38,445 bases of DNA. It comes from a virus. The translations under genes were made by a program, and so were the position numbers. The stretch lies in the IMG/VR virus record IMGVR_UViG_3300012924_000005; one strand, written 5' to 3'. Within the stretch, counting starts at the first letter, position 1, and each line of letters starts with the position of its first letter. The notes beneath the pieces are model-generated. The model did not search any database. It worked only from the letters and a program-made list of their open reading frames with translations, and was not told where the DNA came from. Positions 4,134-38,445 of this stretch are shown piece by piece.

Positions 4134-6518
4134 CTAGTTGTTGAGAATGATCTTGCGCTCACGAATGAGCCTCATGAACATCACGGAAACCGCGCCGTCG
4201 GTATCGCCCGTGAATCGCACCTCAGTGCCACCGCCATTAATCATGACGGGAGCGACGTTCGGTACGGCTGACATCATTGCCTGCGATTGCCCCGAGGGGT
4301 ACACCATTGAGCCGTCTGGCAAGTTCACCAACTCAGGGCCATGCTCGCCTATGAGCGTCATGCCGCCACCCGGACCGCCGCTGGCCTGAGCCCGGATATT
4401 GCCACGCCCCTGAACGATGCCCGACCCCTGATTCTCAACGTAGTTTCGGCCGCTCCCTGTGACGAAAGTGTCAACTTGTACAGTCACCTTTTTGAGCGGG
4501 GGCAGTCCGTTAAGTAAACGCAGTAGATCGTTCAGGTTATTGATCGCGTCGGTCAGTCCTTGCGTGGCGATGTTCGTGTTTACCTTGTCGGGCACGGTGG
4601 CATACTTACCTACCAGCCCGTCAATCTGCGCTTGCGTCAATCCCGCCTGGCGCATCTGCCTTTCGAGCGCCTGCGTGTTCGCGTCGTATGCCTTGGCGGC
4701 AACGTCAGCTCCCGCGCCTGACGCGATGGCCACGTCGTATGCCTTAATGTTGGCATCCACCTGAGCCAGGATCGCCTCGCGGTTCGCCTGTCCTTTCTCG
4801 GTGTGGATGTCAAGCTGTTTGCCGTTCTGCTTGAACGAATCCGACACCTTCGTTAGGCTCTCCGCGACACCAAGTAGCGCGTGATCCGAGTCCATCATCG
4901 AGTTGAACAGCTTGTCCGACATCTCGCCCGCGAGCGTGTCGGCGGATTTAGACGTATCGCCCAGCTTCTTGGAGAGCGCATCGAGATCATCAGCAGCCTT
5001 TGCGGTAGCGGCTCCCGCGGTGCCCGTGGTCTTCGCCAGCGAGTCAAGGGCGTTCTGATATTGTGGCAGGCCTTTCTTCAGGTCCTCAACGCTGATGCCC
5101 TGTCGCTGCGCGGCGCGCGTCAACTCATCAAACTGACCCGCGGCTTCCTTGATGTTGCCGTTCGAGACCTCGTCCGCGAGTGCTGCATCGATCGAAGAGA
5201 TGCGTTCACGCGCATGCTCTAGCGACTCGTCAAATACGGACCCCAACCCCGTAAGCCCCTCGGCCACCCCCGCGATGGCGTTGCCGGTCTTCGCCATGCC
5301 GCCAGAGCCAAGCGTGCCGAGATCGTAATTCAGGTGCTTAGTTACCTCGGAGACGTTTTGTCCACTCGTGCCGAGCGCCTCAAGGGCCTTCTGGGTGGTG
5401 GCCACCCCGGTACTGTCGGTGTGGCCGAGCGCCGCGCTCGCGGTTTGCACGGCCACCATAGCGACCGCCACGATGCCCGCTGTGCGGGCCAGCTTGCCTA
5501 GCCGGGTGTCGGCGGCCAGTGCCCCCGTGGACAACCCGGAGAATGCCTCTCGGGCCGCCGTGATCCGGGGCGCCAGGAGCAGCGCCGCAGCAGCCAGCCC
5601 CAGCACCGCGACAATCAGCCCCTCGATCGGCCGCGGGATGGCCGCGAACGCCGTGGCCAGCAGCCCGGTGATCTTGGCAAGCTCCGCCAGGACCGGCAGC
5701 AGGCCGGTACCGATCTTCGCCTTGGCGTTCTCCATCTCCGCAGCCGAGATGCGCTGCGCGTTGGCAAGCCCGTTGCTCGTGTTCTTGAAATCGCCGGCCG
5801 TGGCGGAGGTCTGTTTCATGATCAGATTCAGCCGGGCCGAGGCCAGCTCCTGCGTGGTGAGAGCGTTGGCCGAGGTCTTGCTTGTCTCGGCCAGGGCCTC
5901 CGTCTGCACAGCCGCCGCACTCAGACTAACACCGTACTTCTCTAGCGGATCCGACTCGCCACGCAGACCAGCTTGAATCGACTCCAACGCATCGGGTACC
6001 GAGGTGTTGAATACCGATGCCATATCAGCGGCGCGCTGCGTGAGCATCAACGTGTCCGCGCTCACGGTCTTCATGTCAAGCCCGGTGTTCTTCAGTAGCG
6101 CACCCATGGGCGTAACGGCCTCGTTGAAGGCTCGCTGGCTCAGGCCGAACTGCGTAGCGTTGTTCTTCCCCCAGTCGAGAATCACCTTGGAGGATTGTCC
6201 AAATACCTGATTCACGGCGTTGGTAGATTCGCCCAGCGACGATGCCGCCTCCACCGTGCTGCTCATGAACTCCTTGACCTTAGCGGCCCCCTCTTTCAGG
6301 AAGTCCGCCGCGAGTACTCCGGCTGCTGTTTCGCCAATCCTCTTGAGCGATGACGACATACCGTCGGAGCTTGACTTGACTTTCGCTTCTGTCTTCGCGG
6401 ATTGATCACCAATCCCCTTGACCGAATCGGTAACCTGTTTTACTTTCTTGTCGGTGGCGTCGAACCCGGAGCCGGTCTTATCGGCACTCGTGACGACGAT
6501 CTGAATTTCGTTAGCCAT
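4134..6518 (-). CDS. tape measure protein
   Basis: 794 aa. It is Ala/Gly/Leu-rich and helical, with an internal hydrophobic block (LLATAFAAIPRPIEGLIVAVLGLAAAALLLAP). It sits after the chaperone, and GGGAGGGAG precedes the ATG. Confidence 0.9.
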   Translation of the reverse strand: MANEIQIVVTSADKTGSGFDATDKKVKQVTDSVKGIGDQSAKTEAKVKSSSDGMSSSLKRIGETAAGVLAADFLKEGAAKVKEFMSSTVEAASSLGESTNAVNQVFGQSSKVILDWGKNNATQFGLSQRAFNEAVTPMGALLKNTGLDMKTVSADTLMLTQRAADMASVFNTSVPDALESIQAGLRGESDPLEKYGVSLSAAAVQTEALAETSKTSANALTTQELASARLNLIMKQTSATAGDFKNTSNGLANAQRISAAEMENAKAKIGTGLLPVLAELAKITGLLATAFAAIPRPIEGLIVAVLGLAAAALLLAPRITAAREAFSGLSTGALAADTRLGKLARTAGIVAVAMVAVQTASAALGHTDSTGVATTQKALEALGTSGQNVSEVTKHLNYDLGTLGSGGMAKTGNAIAGVAEGLTGLGSVFDESLEHARERISSIDAALADEVSNGNIKEAAGQFDELTRAAQRQGISVEDLKKGLPQYQNALDSLAKTTGTAGAATAKAADDLDALSKKLGDTSKSADTLAGEMSDKLFNSMMDSDHALLGVAESLTKVSDSFKQNGKQLDIHTEKGQANREAILAQVDANIKAYDVAIASGAGADVAAKAYDANTQALERQMRQAGLTQAQIDGLVGKYATVPDKVNTNIATQGLTDAINNLNDLLRLLNGLPPLKKVTVQVDTFVTGSGRNYVENQGSGIVQGRGNIRAQASGGPGGGMTLIGEHGPELVNLPDGSMVYPSGQSQAMMSAVPNVAPVMINGGGTEVRFTGDTDGAVSVMFMRLIRERKIILNN

Positions 6519-21973: not shown

Positions 21974-22297
21974 TCACTGCCTGTGATCCGTCATCAGGAC
22001 CGATGCTAGCACCGTCTTCGCAATTGTCAAATTAATCTTCCTGCGAGGAAGACCATTGGTCTTCGCCCACCCGCCGACGGTGCGCCCGTCGTGCCATACC
22101 AGCCACACCCTCTCCGCGCCCCGCCGGCAGTCCAGCGCCACGCTGCTCACCACGCGTCCAGCCGGCCCGTAAGCCCCCGTAGTCTCGCCCCTCGCCCACG
22201 TACAGCTCACCGCCCAACCCCAACCCTCCACCCGGGTCCACAGGATGCTCACAGCCCGTGGAACCCGGGTATCCGCCTTGTCCGTGATCTCAGCCAC
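21974..22297 (-). CDS. hypothetical Trp-rich protein (107 aa)
   Basis: ORF track. The GTG start overlaps the RusA stop by 8 nt. Confidence 0.55.
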   Translation of the reverse strand: MAEITDKADTRVPRAVSILWTRVEGWGWAVSCTWARGETTGAYGPAGRVVSSVALDCRRGAERVWLVWHDGRTVGGWAKTNGLPRRKINLTIAKTVLASVLMTDHRQ

Positions 22298-22757
22298 CCG
22301 CCCGCGTCCTCACATTGATCGCCACTCCCATGACTCCACCCACGGCAACGTTTGCGTATTTCTTCGAACAGGCAAGTGTGATCACTTGCGAATCATCCGC
22401 ATACACCCTTGCGTCTGTCAGTGCATCCAGCACGTTGCGAATCAGCTTATCAAGGTCTCCATACTGCCGACCGATCGGACTTTCGACATCCCTGTCCACG
22501 CGCCCCGTTGATGGTATGAGAAATGTCATACTGACTATCACCGGACCGTGATGCGGATATCCCTCTTTCAACTTCAGTCCATTGATGATCTCATCCGTGA
22601 TCGCGCGCACAGCCGCGTTGCTCACGGCCACCCTCCATGCCTTGCTGTCCTTCACTTGTTCTTCCATGCGCACCTTACGTGTTGACCAATTAACTATCGG
22701 TTTCAATGAACCCTTCGTTCGTGGTCTTCCCTCCACGAAGATATCCAGCAATTCCAT
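22290..22757 (-). CDS. rusA: RusA-like Holliday junction resolvase
   Basis: MELLDIFVEGRPRTKGS...GDLDKLIRNVLDALTDARVYADDSQV, the RusA catalytic Asp pattern. The track ORF begins at TTG 22808. Confidence 0.78.
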   Translation of the reverse strand: MELLDIFVEGRPRTKGSLKPIVNWSTRKVRMEEQVKDSKAWRVAVSNAAVRAITDEIINGLKLKEGYPHHGPVIVSMTFLIPSTGRVDRDVESPIGRQYGDLDKLIRNVLDALTDARVYADDSQVITLACSKKYANVAVGGVMGVAINVRTRAGG

Positions 22758-22821
22758 CCTCGTTATTGCCTCCGTCCGGTCTAGTTGATCTTGATCTTTC
22801 CGGCTCAACTTCGTTCCCAGG

Positions 22822-23147
22822 ATTCCGGCGGGGGGTTCTACTAACCCCCCCCCGCCGGACGGAATTTCCGGAGACCATTCCGGAGATCATTTACTCCGGA
22901 AAAACCCTGGTCAGAACGTTCCGGGCAAGATTCCGGAATTCCGGGACAGACATCGATGAACGTCTCCGGAATCCTCTCCGGAATCGGACATTTGCCCCCA
23001 GTGTAGGTATAGATCGGCACAAAAAACAACCAACGATCGTCGATACCATTCTCGACAAATCCCCCCATGTCTAACCTTGTCTCTGATACCCCCCGGAATT
23101 TTGGCCCGGAATCCCGGAATCCGGAGCCCCCTGGCCGGAATCCGGGG
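22822..23147. repeat. iteron array: at least 14 copies of (T/C)CCGGAAT in both orientations in two clusters around an AT-rich spacer; putative origin
   Basis: Copies near 22822, 22865, 22877, 22893, 22929 and 22937 (palindrome ATTCCGGAATTCCGG), 22964, 22975, 23091, 23106, 23114, 23119 and 23134. The spacer 22990-23090 is A/T-rich (cacaaaaaacaaccaac). Confidence 0.6.
22825..22858. other. G/C homopolymer hairpin at the left edge of the iteron array
   Basis: CCGGCGGGGGG-ttctactaaccc-CCCCCCGCCGG, an 11-bp stem. Confidence 0.5.
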
Positions 23148-23151
23148 CAGA

Positions 23152-25050
23152 TCATTCGGACATCCGATCTTCAATCGGGACATACCTGTACGACTGAGTA
23201 CCCTCAACCCGAGCAAGCAGCCGACGTTGGATCATCTCATTCCACGTATCGTAAAATACGGTCTTAGACATCCCTCGTTCAGCAGCTATCGAGCGAACCT
23301 CGGCCTTAGTGCCACCGTTCCCAGTAGCGAATGGACCACGTGGCGCGGTGAACAAACTGATCATTTTTTGAAGCGCCGGCATCTTGCTATCTTCAAATAC
23401 ATCATACGCCACAAGCGCACTCCCGGGCTCGATCATCACGCATGAAGTGATGGGCAAGCCGTCTTCATCCTTGCCCATCTCCATCACGTGCATGAGGAAA
23501 TCGAGCTTGACATCATCTGCGTCGTCCTTCTGCTTCGGCGTAGTCACCTCAATCTTCTGTCCCTCACGCCGCACCAGCAGCTCTGTCTGGATGCCGGCCT
23601 TGACCGCGGTAGCACCCCGCCCCTCCTCCCCGTTGTGGCCGAGATGATGCACGAACAGCACGCAGGCTCCCGTCGCACGCCTTAGCGCCTCGGCGTGACC
23701 GATGACCACGCCCATCTCGGTATTGTCGTTCTCGTTGACCCCGGTCGTAACGCGTGCTTGCGTATCGAGCACAATGAGCGCGGGTGACAACCGACGACAC
23801 GCCTCCATGAGCGTCGTCCACTCCGTGCCCGTAACCTGCACAGGGCGTGGCAGGAATCGCACCCCATCCATGCGTGCATCGTGCCACTTCTCCCAGGCGC
23901 GTACACGCTTACGGAATCCCTCGGCCCCCTCGGCAACGACATACACCACCAGCCCCTGATGGACCCTCGCCCCCCGCCAGTCCATCCCCGCGCCAACGTG
24001 TGCCGCAATGTCAAGCGTGACGAATGACTTACCATGCGTACTCTTCCCGTTGATTCGCGCCACTGAGTTACGTGACAGCCACCCCTTCACGAGTGGCTGC
24101 AAGTCCCCGATCGCGTCCAGCTCATCCGTGTTCAGCATCTCCGCGATTAGCGCGTCTGCCGCATCCCCCCCTCCACCCTGATCCTCAGCCGGCGCGGCAT
24201 CACCCCCACCGCGCATCTCGTACGGTTCGCGCATCCCGGCCATCAGGCCCGAGCGCACCGTGGCGCGGATCTCCGCCGCGCCCAGCCCAACCGCCTCACC
24301 GATCGCGGTCAGCCGCTCGGCCACCGCGGCCTCCGGCCAGAAGGCCGGCACGAAGTGGCCGCAGAGCAGCGCCGTAGCGTTGAGCACGTGGTTGCGTCCG
24401 CCGGGCTGAGCACCCCGGAGTCGGTCCAACGCGGCCCCGACGTACACCGCGGCCTCTTCCCGGGAAAAGCCCCGTGCCGGCCCGCTGAACGGGTCCGCAA
24501 CCCCAGTCCCACCCGCAGTCCCACCCGGTCCCACGCTGTCCCCGGCGGCCCGGCGCATTCGCTCGACCACCACGACCGGCAGGTCCGGCAGGTTGCACAC
24601 CAGCGGCGGCAGGGCGTAGGCGACCACGTACCCGCCCAGCCCCTTGACGTCCACGTCCAGGGCCACCCGGCCGGTACTGTCGGTGCCCACCACGGCGCGG
24701 CGCGGCTCCGCGTAGAAGAGGTGTCGGCCCCCGGAGGGGGTGGCCGTGGCCGTGGCCGGCTCCACTTCGCCCAGCTCGCGCCAGGCGGCCCGGCCAGCGC
24801 GCAGCCGGCCATGCTTCGGCCCCTCGTCCAGGTCCACTACAACCACGCCGGACTTCCCACAGTCGATCGCCCAGCCCTCGGCATCCGGGTACCGGGCGGC
24901 CAGCGCGGCCAGCGCCGCAGGCTCCGTCGTGCTTTCTGACCTCCACCGGCAGCCACGCGCGGGCGTCTTTTCTAGTATCGATGCGATCGGGAACACGGCA
25001 TATCCAGATGCGGTGAGTTCCCGAGCGAGTTTGATCATGCTATCGTGCAT
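23152..25050 (-). CDS. bifunctional primase-polymerase / RepA-DnaB-like helicase with a C-terminal winged-helix-like region
   Basis: Prim-Pol motifs AVFPI, VVVVDLDEG and TPSGGRHLFY. Walker A NGKSTHGKS, Walker B ALIVLDTQAR. 632 aa. Confidence 0.88.
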   Translation of the reverse strand: MHDSMIKLARELTASGYAVFPIASILEKTPARGCRWRSESTTEPAALAALAARYPDAEGWAIDCGKSGVVVVDLDEGPKHGRLRAGRAAWRELGEVEPATATATPSGGRHLFYAEPRRAVVGTDSTGRVALDVDVKGLGGYVVAYALPPLVCNLPDLPVVVVERMRRAAGDSVGPGGTAGGTGVADPFSGPARGFSREEAAVYVGAALDRLRGAQPGGRNHVLNATALLCGHFVPAFWPEAAVAERLTAIGEAVGLGAAEIRATVRSGLMAGMREPYEMRGGGDAAPAEDQGGGGDAADALIAEMLNTDELDAIGDLQPLVKGWLSRNSVARINGKSTHGKSFVTLDIAAHVGAGMDWRGARVHQGLVVYVVAEGAEGFRKRVRAWEKWHDARMDGVRFLPRPVQVTGTEWTTLMEACRRLSPALIVLDTQARVTTGVNENDNTEMGVVIGHAEALRRATGACVLFVHHLGHNGEEGRGATAVKAGIQTELLVRREGQKIEVTTPKQKDDADDVKLDFLMHVMEMGKDEDGLPITSCVMIEPGSALVAYDVFEDSKMPALQKMISLFTAPRGPFATGNGGTKAEVRSIAAERGMSKTVFYDTWNEMIQRRLLARVEGTQSYRYVPIEDRMSE

Positions 25051-25463: not shown

Positions 25464-25491
25464 TTGACATGTTACTAGGTCTGCGTATAAT
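25464..25491 (+). promoter_or_regulatory. consensus sigma70-type promoter for the rightward early operon
   Basis: TTGACA (25464-25469), 16 nt, TATAAT (25486-25491). AGGAG and the GTG start of the first ORF follow at 25542. Confidence 0.7.
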
Positions 25492-38227: not shown

Positions 38228-38445
38228 TCAGCCGGCGGCTGCGGCGGCAAAGACCTGACGGACGGCGGTAGTCACTGCGCTGGCTACCCCGGCAGCCACG
38301 TCGGCCGGCAGCGCGGCCACCACCCGGGCCGCGAGTTCGTCCGCGTGCGCGGCCAGGGCGGCGGCGGCCCCGGCATCCGCCGCAGCGGTGATCGCGGCCA
38401 ACTCCTCCGGCCCGATGTCGACTTTGGCCGCGATCGCGTTGATCA
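38228..38445 (-). CDS. lysin C-terminal part (Ala-rich helical tail), stop TGA at 38228-38230
   Basis: It reads in frame with 1-772 through the repeat: ...ELAARVVAALPADVAAGVASAVTTAVRQVFAAAAAG*. Joined length is about 288 aa. Confidence 0.7.
   Translation of the reverse strand, partial: INAIAAKVDIGPEELAAITAAADAGAAAALAAHADELAARVVAALPADVAAGVASAVTTAVRQVFAAAAAG
38323..38445. repeat. terminal direct repeat copy 2 (identical to 1-123)
   Basis: Exact 123-nt match to the window start, read by eye. Confidence 0.95.

Follow-up and report, generated by a model that had tools for sequence, protein, structure and literature searches.

The window analysed here is a 38,445-nucleotide stretch of viral DNA (IMG/VR virus record IMGVR_UViG_3300012924_000005), and its subject is a 394-bp intergenic gap (22758-23151) filled with copies of a short repeat, or iteron, of sequence CCGGAAT. 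The gap directly follows the gene for a 632-aa primase-helicase, and its features suggest that it is, with good probability, the origin of replication of the phage. We favour this reading because the repeat is clustered in the gap, because the position of the array is conserved among relatives while the motif itself turns over, because the C-terminal domain of the primase-helicase is predicted to adopt a winged-helix fold, and because the recognition helix of this fold co-varies with the motif.

The first 123 nt of the window are identical to the last 123 nt (1-123 and 38323-38445, an exact direct overlap). The window is a closed circular assembly or carries a terminal repeat, and it represents a complete uncultured phage with a genome of ~38,322 bp. 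Since the ends overlap in this way, the number of CCGGAAT copies in the window is the number in the whole genome. On both strands together there are 11 exact copies, and all of them (11/11) lie within 22822-23141. Were the copies spread evenly, the other 10 would all fall in the same 320 bp with a probability of ~1.6e-21. CCGGAAT was also the top 7-mer cluster of the genome when low-complexity words were excluded, with 11 copies compared to a mean of 4.4 and a maximum of 6 in 60 second-order Markov surrogates. With up to one mismatch allowed, 20 sites were found in 22750-23160, a density of 48.7/kb compared to 2.6/kb elsewhere. The enrichment proposed in the first-pass annotation was thus borne out by the k-mer count, and the motif is not equally frequent elsewhere in the genome. 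The earlier figure of at least 14 copies of (T/C)CCGGAAT holds only when one-mismatch variants are included; the exact counts are nine for (T/C)CCGGAAT and 11 for CCGGAAT. A second copy of the origin elsewhere in the genome is ruled out, as CCGGAAT occurs nowhere outside 22822-23141. The array begins no more than 5 bp from the helicase stop at 23152, and the gap and its neighbours are made up as follows.

23152-25050, minus strand: gene for the 632-aa replication protein, with an N-terminal Prim-Pol (AEP) domain, a RepA/AAA_25 RecA-fold helicase and a predicted C-terminal winged helix.
23155-23400, minus strand: predicted winged-helix domain, residues 551-632, modelled by AlphaFold2 (AF2) as helix-helix-helix-strand-strand.
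~23230-23268, minus strand: recognition helix S595-I607 (SKTVFYDTWNEMI), the only helix that co-varies with the repeat motif.
23091-23147: gene-proximal iteron cluster, with four exact CCGGAAT copies (23093, 23106, 23114, 23135) in a single orientation and overlapping AATCCGG variants.
22986-23090: AT-rich spacer, 48% GC, with an A6 tract and its lowest 40-mer (38% GC) at 23021-23060.
22918-22985: central iterons, with tandem TCCGGAAT at 22966 and 22978 (12-bp spacing), the palindrome ATTCCGGAATTCCGG at 22930-22944 and a degenerate GTTCCGG at 22918-22924.
22897-22914, minus strand: a box conserved across the family, (CT)CTGACCAGG, and after it a T5 A/T patch; the box occurs only once in the genome, occupies 22906-22914 and lies 54 nt ahead of the hairpin.
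22859-22902, minus strand: direct iterons between box and hairpin, reading TCCGGAG, TCCGGAAT and TCCGGAAA on the gene-sense strand, the last two 12 bp apart.
22824-22859: G/C-clamped hairpin or palindrome, with inverted iteron cores (TCCGG...CCGGA) at the base of its stem and a TTAGTAGAA-like loop.
22786-22803: the word TTGATCTTGATCTT (AAGATCA repeated, on the gene strand) and a degenerate iteron TTTCCGG, between the hairpin and the RusA start.
22290-22757, minus strand: RusA-like resolvase gene (Pfam PF05866), a downstream neighbour only and outside the element.

The sequence agrees with the earlier description of two iteron clusters separated by a spacer, and the strings and coordinates given for the palindrome at 22930-22944, for TCCGGAATCCTCTCCGGAAT at 22965-22984 and for CCGGAATCCCGGAATCCGGA at 23106-23125 are correct. 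Read along the gene strand, the array opens with six ATTCCGG copies (four beside the stop, then the spacer, then two). After the palindrome come six or seven CCGGAA(T/A/C) sites, the last of which flank the hairpin. The orientation of the iterons therefore flips at the palindrome and not at the spacer. An inverted repeat with arms at 22866-22886 and 22963-22983 is 90% complementary. Overlapping open reading frames (ORFs) predicted across the repeats had been dismissed as artefacts, which is reasonable, as they are not conserved and the sequence there differs entirely in relatives.

To follow the array in relatives, close homologues of the replication protein were collected by protein search and distant ones by profile searches of IMG/VR, GTDB genomes and metagenomes. 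The protein search found uncultured relatives as well as relatives in Streptomyces, Micromonospora, Nonomuraea and Streptosporangium; 519 relatives were reported by the metagenome profile search, and 80 of these were retained. Locus scans of IMG/VR and GTDB with a single protein returned no loci, and profile-based scans were needed. DNA searches for near and distant matches to the region among cultured phages gave no match. For each of 91 loci encoding a related helicase, cited below by L number, we located the densest 6-mer cluster that was not of low complexity, whatever its word. In 86 of the 91, the densest cluster of the whole locus lay within -150 to +600 of the helicase stop, compared to ~12.9 loci that position alone would predict. 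The repeat words themselves are diverse, numbering more than 50 across related loci, among them CTGGAAT (L001), GAGACT (L004), GTGAGAC(T) (L005 and L006), CCGGACAT (L008), TTGGAC (L009), CATGTCA (L010), AGTTCGG (L012) and TGCCACA (L018). What related phages conserve is thus the position of the repeats but not their word, and this positional conservation, with the predicted winged helix and the helix-motif co-variation described below, supports the earlier proposal that iterons beside an initiator gene form a putative origin. Two of the five exceptions (L008 and L132) have an extra ORF between the helicase gene and the array; in L008 this ORF (5651-6270) encodes 203 aa, and the array is separable from the gene by ~0.6-0.8 kb.

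The genes on the far side of the array vary. RusA follows it directly in only 11 of 69 loci. In L070, from Streptomyces griseorubiginosus (NZ_WVUG01000051.1), the array follows an integrase and AAA_25 helicase pair and lies beside host genes, with no terminase in view. The order there is a sigma-70 gene, a tyrosine integrase, an AAA_25 helicase without PrimPol, a CCTTCGC/AGCGAAG array and an NB-ARC/TPR gene, and this locus looks like a small integrated element with the same helicase-plus-array module. Because the neighbours vary in this way, the array belongs with the helicase gene rather than with RusA or the packaging genes.

The 632-aa protein matches PF09250 (2.2e-20) and PF13481 (9.5e-32) in Pfam, and an AF2 model of the whole protein reached a mean predicted local distance difference test (pLDDT) score of 87.7. 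The best Foldseek match of the helicase core was RepA of RSF1010 (1NLF/1G8Y, TMt 0.67-0.71); RAD51 and DnaB were also matched, and all of these have the RecA fold. The C-terminal domain modelled alone gave a predicted template modelling (pTM) score of 0.77, and Foldseek matched it to the winged-helix DNA-binding domains of IclR, Zur/Fur, PadR, LexA and SSV1 F-93. A PDB sequence search with the C-terminal domain found nothing meaningful. The suggestion that a winged-helix-like region at the C-terminus could read the repeats is therefore strengthened at the level of structure prediction, where the fold is confident, and by the co-variation of its recognition helix with the motif.

This co-variation was measured in 36 non-redundant loci with an alignable recognition helix by comparing pairwise motif similarity, calculated from position-weight matrices, with protein identity. 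Motif similarity followed recognition-helix identity when helicase-domain identity was controlled for (partial Mantel r=0.23, reached in 0 of 2000 permutations) and when the rest of the C-terminal domain was controlled for as well (r=0.25, 0/2000); the correlation is modest and, on related sequences, the permutation counts are not strict probabilities. No such relation was seen in the same 36 loci for helix 2, the wing or helix 1 (r = -0.03, -0.05 and -0.02), and motif similarity did not track helicase-domain identity (Spearman -0.09). That helix 2 and the wing gave no signal speaks against pure linkage. When the comparison was restricted to pairs whose helicases share less than 50% identity, the top 5% in motif similarity had a recognition-helix identity of 0.43 compared to 0.29 (p=1.8e-6).

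Individual lineages illustrate this pattern. A D-[ST]-W-N helix occurs in the window (KTVFYDTWN), in L016 (KTTFYDSWN) and in L143/L135 (SWIDSWN), and all of these use CCGGAA[T/G], although the helicase domains of the three lineages are only 40-46% identical, below the family average of 48%. Conversely, L001 shares 79-80% helicase identity with the window yet has A-A at those helix positions and uses CTGGAAT, and L004 shares 80% yet has Y-R-A-W (R-A) and uses GAGACT. Other pairings also recur, FYR[AL]W with GTGAGAC/GAGACT and [FWY]YR plus a non-W residue with GTCCCAC.

Besides the changing iterons, the arrays share a second set of elements. In the hairpin of the window, 22824-22835 pairs with 22848-22859 to form a 12-bp stem around a 12-nt loop, and folded as DNA the hairpin has a free energy of -19.6 kcal/mol (z = -3.9). 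The G/C hairpin noted earlier at the left edge of the array is thus real, but it is more than an edge feature and forms part of a core conserved across the family: iteron-flanked G/C hairpins with a T/A-rich loop and an inverted local iteron at the base of the stem recur in relatives. The hairpin is followed by no T-run on either strand, and the terminator scan made no call there; without a T-run, we rejected it as a canonical intrinsic terminator. No Rfam family matched in 22600-23300 at E<=1. The box has the consensus CTCTGACC[AT]G(G/C), is orientation-specific and is followed by a short A/T patch, all inside otherwise hypervariable arrays. With up to one mismatch and in the sense orientation, CTGACCWGG was found in the arrays of 46 of the 80 non-redundant relatives, at 2.6/kb inside the arrays compared to 0.77/kb outside. 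In 23 loci the box lies 50-76 nt upstream of the hairpin, and the 3-4 direct iterons between them have roughly one-turn spacing. Examples of the box with its A/T patch include the window, L001, L005, L009, L018, L107 and L141, among others.

From these comparisons, the conserved core consists of the CTCTGACCWG box, the short A/T patch, 3-4 direct iterons and the G/C hairpin flanked by inverted iterons, in the window at ~22824-22914 and in all ~100-130 bp long. The box is a candidate melting or priming site, or a candidate site for a host factor, and the A/T patch that follows it is an alternative candidate for the unwinding element. A further shared word lies close by: the arrays of relatives are enriched 7-9.5x in AAGATCA, TGATCTT and ATCTTGA, which often lie just after the hairpin and in either orientation, and the copies in the window are at 22786-22798. 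We rejected a clustering of GATC as a Dam/SeqA-like origin feature, with 7.4/kb outside the arrays and 7.9/kb inside; genome-wide, GATC occurs 294 times, ~2x the expectation from base composition. The last helicase codons (ATGTCCGA..., peptide ...RMSE) recur once inside the array (window 23156-23163 and 22984-22991), and likewise L009 repeats 14 nt of its gene end (4783-4800 and ~4905-4920). As part of the origin, the DNA that encodes the conserved C-terminal tail may itself be under constraint.

We infer binding, ring loading, a melting site, priming and origin activity from these sequence features and models, along the following lines. The 632-aa protein, encoded just upstream, would act as initiator, helicase and primase on one chain. 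Its C-terminal winged helix would dock on (T)CCGGAAT through the recognition helix SKTVFYDTWNEMI, and the many closely placed sites in both orientations would concentrate subunits, so that RepA-type hexameric rings could assemble without a separate loader. The duplex would then open nearby, and the N-terminal PrimPol would make the first primers before a host polymerase takes over. In the ORFs scanned with Pfam, a scan that was incomplete, no gene for a DNA polymerase could be identified; once its own PrimPol-helicase has made the primers, the phage probably depends on the replicase of its host.

A more specific form of this proposal, which we advance only tentatively, is an origin of two layers. 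One layer would be a swappable pair of iterons (6-8 nt) and recognition helix, and the other a universal core of box, A/T patch and G/C hairpin ~55-70 nt downstream. This core would be read by the PrimPol and RepA-helicase parts of the protein or by a host factor, and it would be the actual site of melting or priming. In such an origin, the relation of helix to motif would be partly readable, with D-[ST]-W-N going with CCGGAA, FYR[AL]W with GTGAGAC and [FWY]YR-nonW with GTCCCAC.

A close functional parallel is found in pathogenicity islands of Staphylococcus aureus (SaPIs) and related phage-inducible chromosomal islands (PICIs). Proven SaPI origins consist of 6-12 iterons of 5-6 nt directly 3' of rep, around AT-rich DNA, and are read by a C-terminal winged helix (PMC9371898; bioRxiv 10.64898/2026.10.17.759575). 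The likeness to the SaPI/PICI initiators Rep1 and PriRep5 extends to several features: the initiator is a hexameric replicative helicase, sometimes fused to a primase, with a C-terminal winged helix; the origin lies directly 3' of its gene and spans ~300 bp, and its 6-12 or more iterons, each 5-8 nt long, occur in both orientations and are interspersed with AT-rich DNA; and iteron and protein specificity are matched separately within each element (PMC9371898; bioRxiv 10.64898/2026.10.17.759575). There are also clear differences. SaPI Reps are superfamily 3 (SF3) or MCM-like AAA+ proteins with 3'-5' polarity, whereas the phage helicase has a RecA fold of the RSF1010 RepA type; an SF3 or MCM-like AAA+ core was not found in it, its matches being to Pfam AAA_25 and to RecA-fold structures. 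In the phage array both sides of the spacer share one iteron orientation, which switches at the palindrome; the conserved box and the iteron-flanked G/C hairpin are additions; and the element belongs to a full actinobacterial phage rather than a satellite. By analogy, the gap would work like a SaPI origin, and the protein lies outside the families of SaPI Rep, P4 alpha and pRN1 ORF904.

The alpha protein of satellite phage P4 unites a primase and a helicase with a winged helix at the C-terminus that binds the origin by reading short repeats (octamers). Its helicase is of SF3, and P4 needs two separated cis sites, ori and crr. The phage protein resembles it in carrying primase, helicase and a predicted winged-helix reader of short repeats in one polypeptide. 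In contrast to ori and crr, the phage has a single array, and a second CCGGAAT region is absent from the closed genome. The primase of P4 alpha is of the bacterial type, with a Toprim domain (PMC4234260). ORF904 of the archaeal plasmid pRN1 is a PrimPol-helicase-winged-helix protein whose origin, just 3' of its gene, includes an essential stem-loop, and the authors of that work remarked that bacteriophages have comparable stem-loops 3' of genes of this kind (PMC4234260). The phage protein likewise has a Prim-Pol domain (PF09250) and a predicted winged helix, and a hairpin lies 3' of its gene. However, the pRN1 helicase is of SF3 and its stem-loop is ~100 nt long without iterons, whereas the phage hairpin has a 12-bp stem and sits inside an iteron array. 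At oriV of RSF1010, RepC reads the iterons, which are 20-bp direct repeats, RepA is the helicase and RepB' the primase, and hairpins serve as single-strand initiation (ssi) sites of the primase. RSF1010 (IncQ) is like the phage in that its RepA is the closest structural match of the helicase domain and that iterons, AT-rich DNA and hairpins occur at its origin; it differs in that the iterons of the phage are 7-8 bp and its functions are fused. In RSF1010 the three functions are on three separate proteins (PMC4234260).

Downstream of the replication gene, the gene order is RusA, two small ORFs, a TerS-like gene, TerL and portal. The start of RusA is most likely the ATG at 22757 (MELLDIFVEGRPRTKG), and not the TTG at 22808 chosen by the ORF finder, as judged from a GGAGG-type ribosome-binding site upstream of the ATG and from agreement with the N-termini of relatives. 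The gap, previously measured as 343 bp, is therefore 394 bp long. Elsewhere in the genome, the divergent early region has a perfect TTGACA-16-TATAAT promoter at 25464-25491 (+), and a second promoter, TTGACA-16-TAGCAT, which has an extended -10, lies at 22030-22003 (-) inside the end of a 107-aa ORF. A terminator-like hairpin lies at 21577-21543, ahead of TerS.

Several observations weigh against the gap being an origin, or against parts of that reading. The first concerns the spacer, whose A/T-rich segment of about 100 bp had been put forward as a DNA-unwinding element. The segment is relatively AT-rich, at 48% GC compared to 63% for the genome (the 1.3rd percentile of 105-bp windows), but it is not the most AT-rich place in the genome, it is absent or different in relatives, and, unlike in SaPIs, the iterons on its two sides have the same orientation. 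Its role in unwinding is thus doubtful, and it remains a candidate for either an auxiliary region or an unwinding element. What does count in favour of an origin is that the arrays are AT-enriched against their own loci (58% compared to 66% GC). In the closest relative, L001, the gap is 184 bp and lacks a 100-bp spacer, and the box lies 28 nt past the stop; for this reason the gene-proximal cluster and the AT-rich spacer seem to have been added to the core in a lineage-specific manner. GC skew was uninformative, since its minimum near 25 kb coincides with a switch in gene orientation and does not single out the site. The cultured homologue gp138 of Mycobacterium phage Bobby, which served as a negative control for the statistic, has no array, so the link between helicase and array is not universal; we therefore rejected mycobacteriophage cluster J as a cultured model. 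On the side of recognition, L009 and L097 share GTCCAA with different helices, which excludes a simple one-residue code, and some co-inheritance of motif and helix is expected from a C-terminal domain encoded right beside the array.

The hairpin could equally be read as a U-less actinobacterial terminator, and terminators of this kind are said to be common in actinobacteria. This is the starting point for an explanation that we consider unlikely, in which the gap is an operon boundary where the hairpin ends the early transcript and the repeats bind a regulator of read-through or of activation of RusA and the packaging genes. The array does lie between the replication genes and RusA, TerS and TerL, the hairpin is strong, and a conserved box at a fixed distance upstream of it could in principle be a transcription signal. 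However, no sigma-70-like promoter was called in the gap while perfect ones were called elsewhere in the genome, and inspection of the arrays of relatives revealed no consistent -10 after the box; there is thus no support for a sigma-70 promoter, whether within the gap or beginning at the CTGACC box. Most iterons lie upstream of the hairpin, which would be odd for activator sites of a downstream promoter. The array also follows the helicase stop whatever the next gene is, with RusA adjacent in just the 11 of 69 loci, and its motif co-varies with the recognition helix of the helicase itself.

As the co-variation would show at most recognition of the repeats and not origin firing, the C-terminal domain might bind them for another purpose, such as autoregulation or titration, a fork barrier or a partition-like site. 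Plasmid iteron arrays act in copy-number control ("handcuffing") as well, which counts in favour of such a role. We regard it as improbable nonetheless, since the array is 3' of the gene and not at its promoter, no partition genes were seen, no second array with CCGGAAT is present elsewhere that could be the real origin, and the proven precedents with exactly this arrangement act as origins (PMC9371898, PMC4234260). A pac or cos site for packaging, read by the small terminase, would be a very remote explanation. It would fit the position ~1.3 kb upstream of the TerS-like gene, and terminase-binding sites are often arrays of short repeats. Yet the distance from array to terminase varies from ~2.2 to 3.4 kb in relatives, while the array adjoins the helicase stop; the integrated Streptomyces element keeps its array with no terminase in view; and the motif changes together with the helicase's winged helix.

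Reading the gap as the replication origin provides a concrete putative origin not only for this uncultured phage of actinobacteria but also for ~85 or more related loci in phages and integrated elements. The principle of an initiator-helicase with an adjoining origin is already known from staphylococcal islands, P4 and pRN1; it would be extended here to RepA-type RecA-fold helicases fused to PrimPol, and what is added is a broad family, the co-variation of helix and motif, and a conserved core. The many matched helix and iteron pairs are natural material on how winged helices read DNA and could yield compatible replicons in Streptomyces-like hosts, and the conserved box and hairpin may show where replication truly starts. 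If the two-layer origin is true, it would reveal a self-loading RecA-fold (SF4-like) replicative helicase, in a class normally thought to depend on loaders, and would be a source of many orthogonal initiator-origin pairs for actinobacteria.

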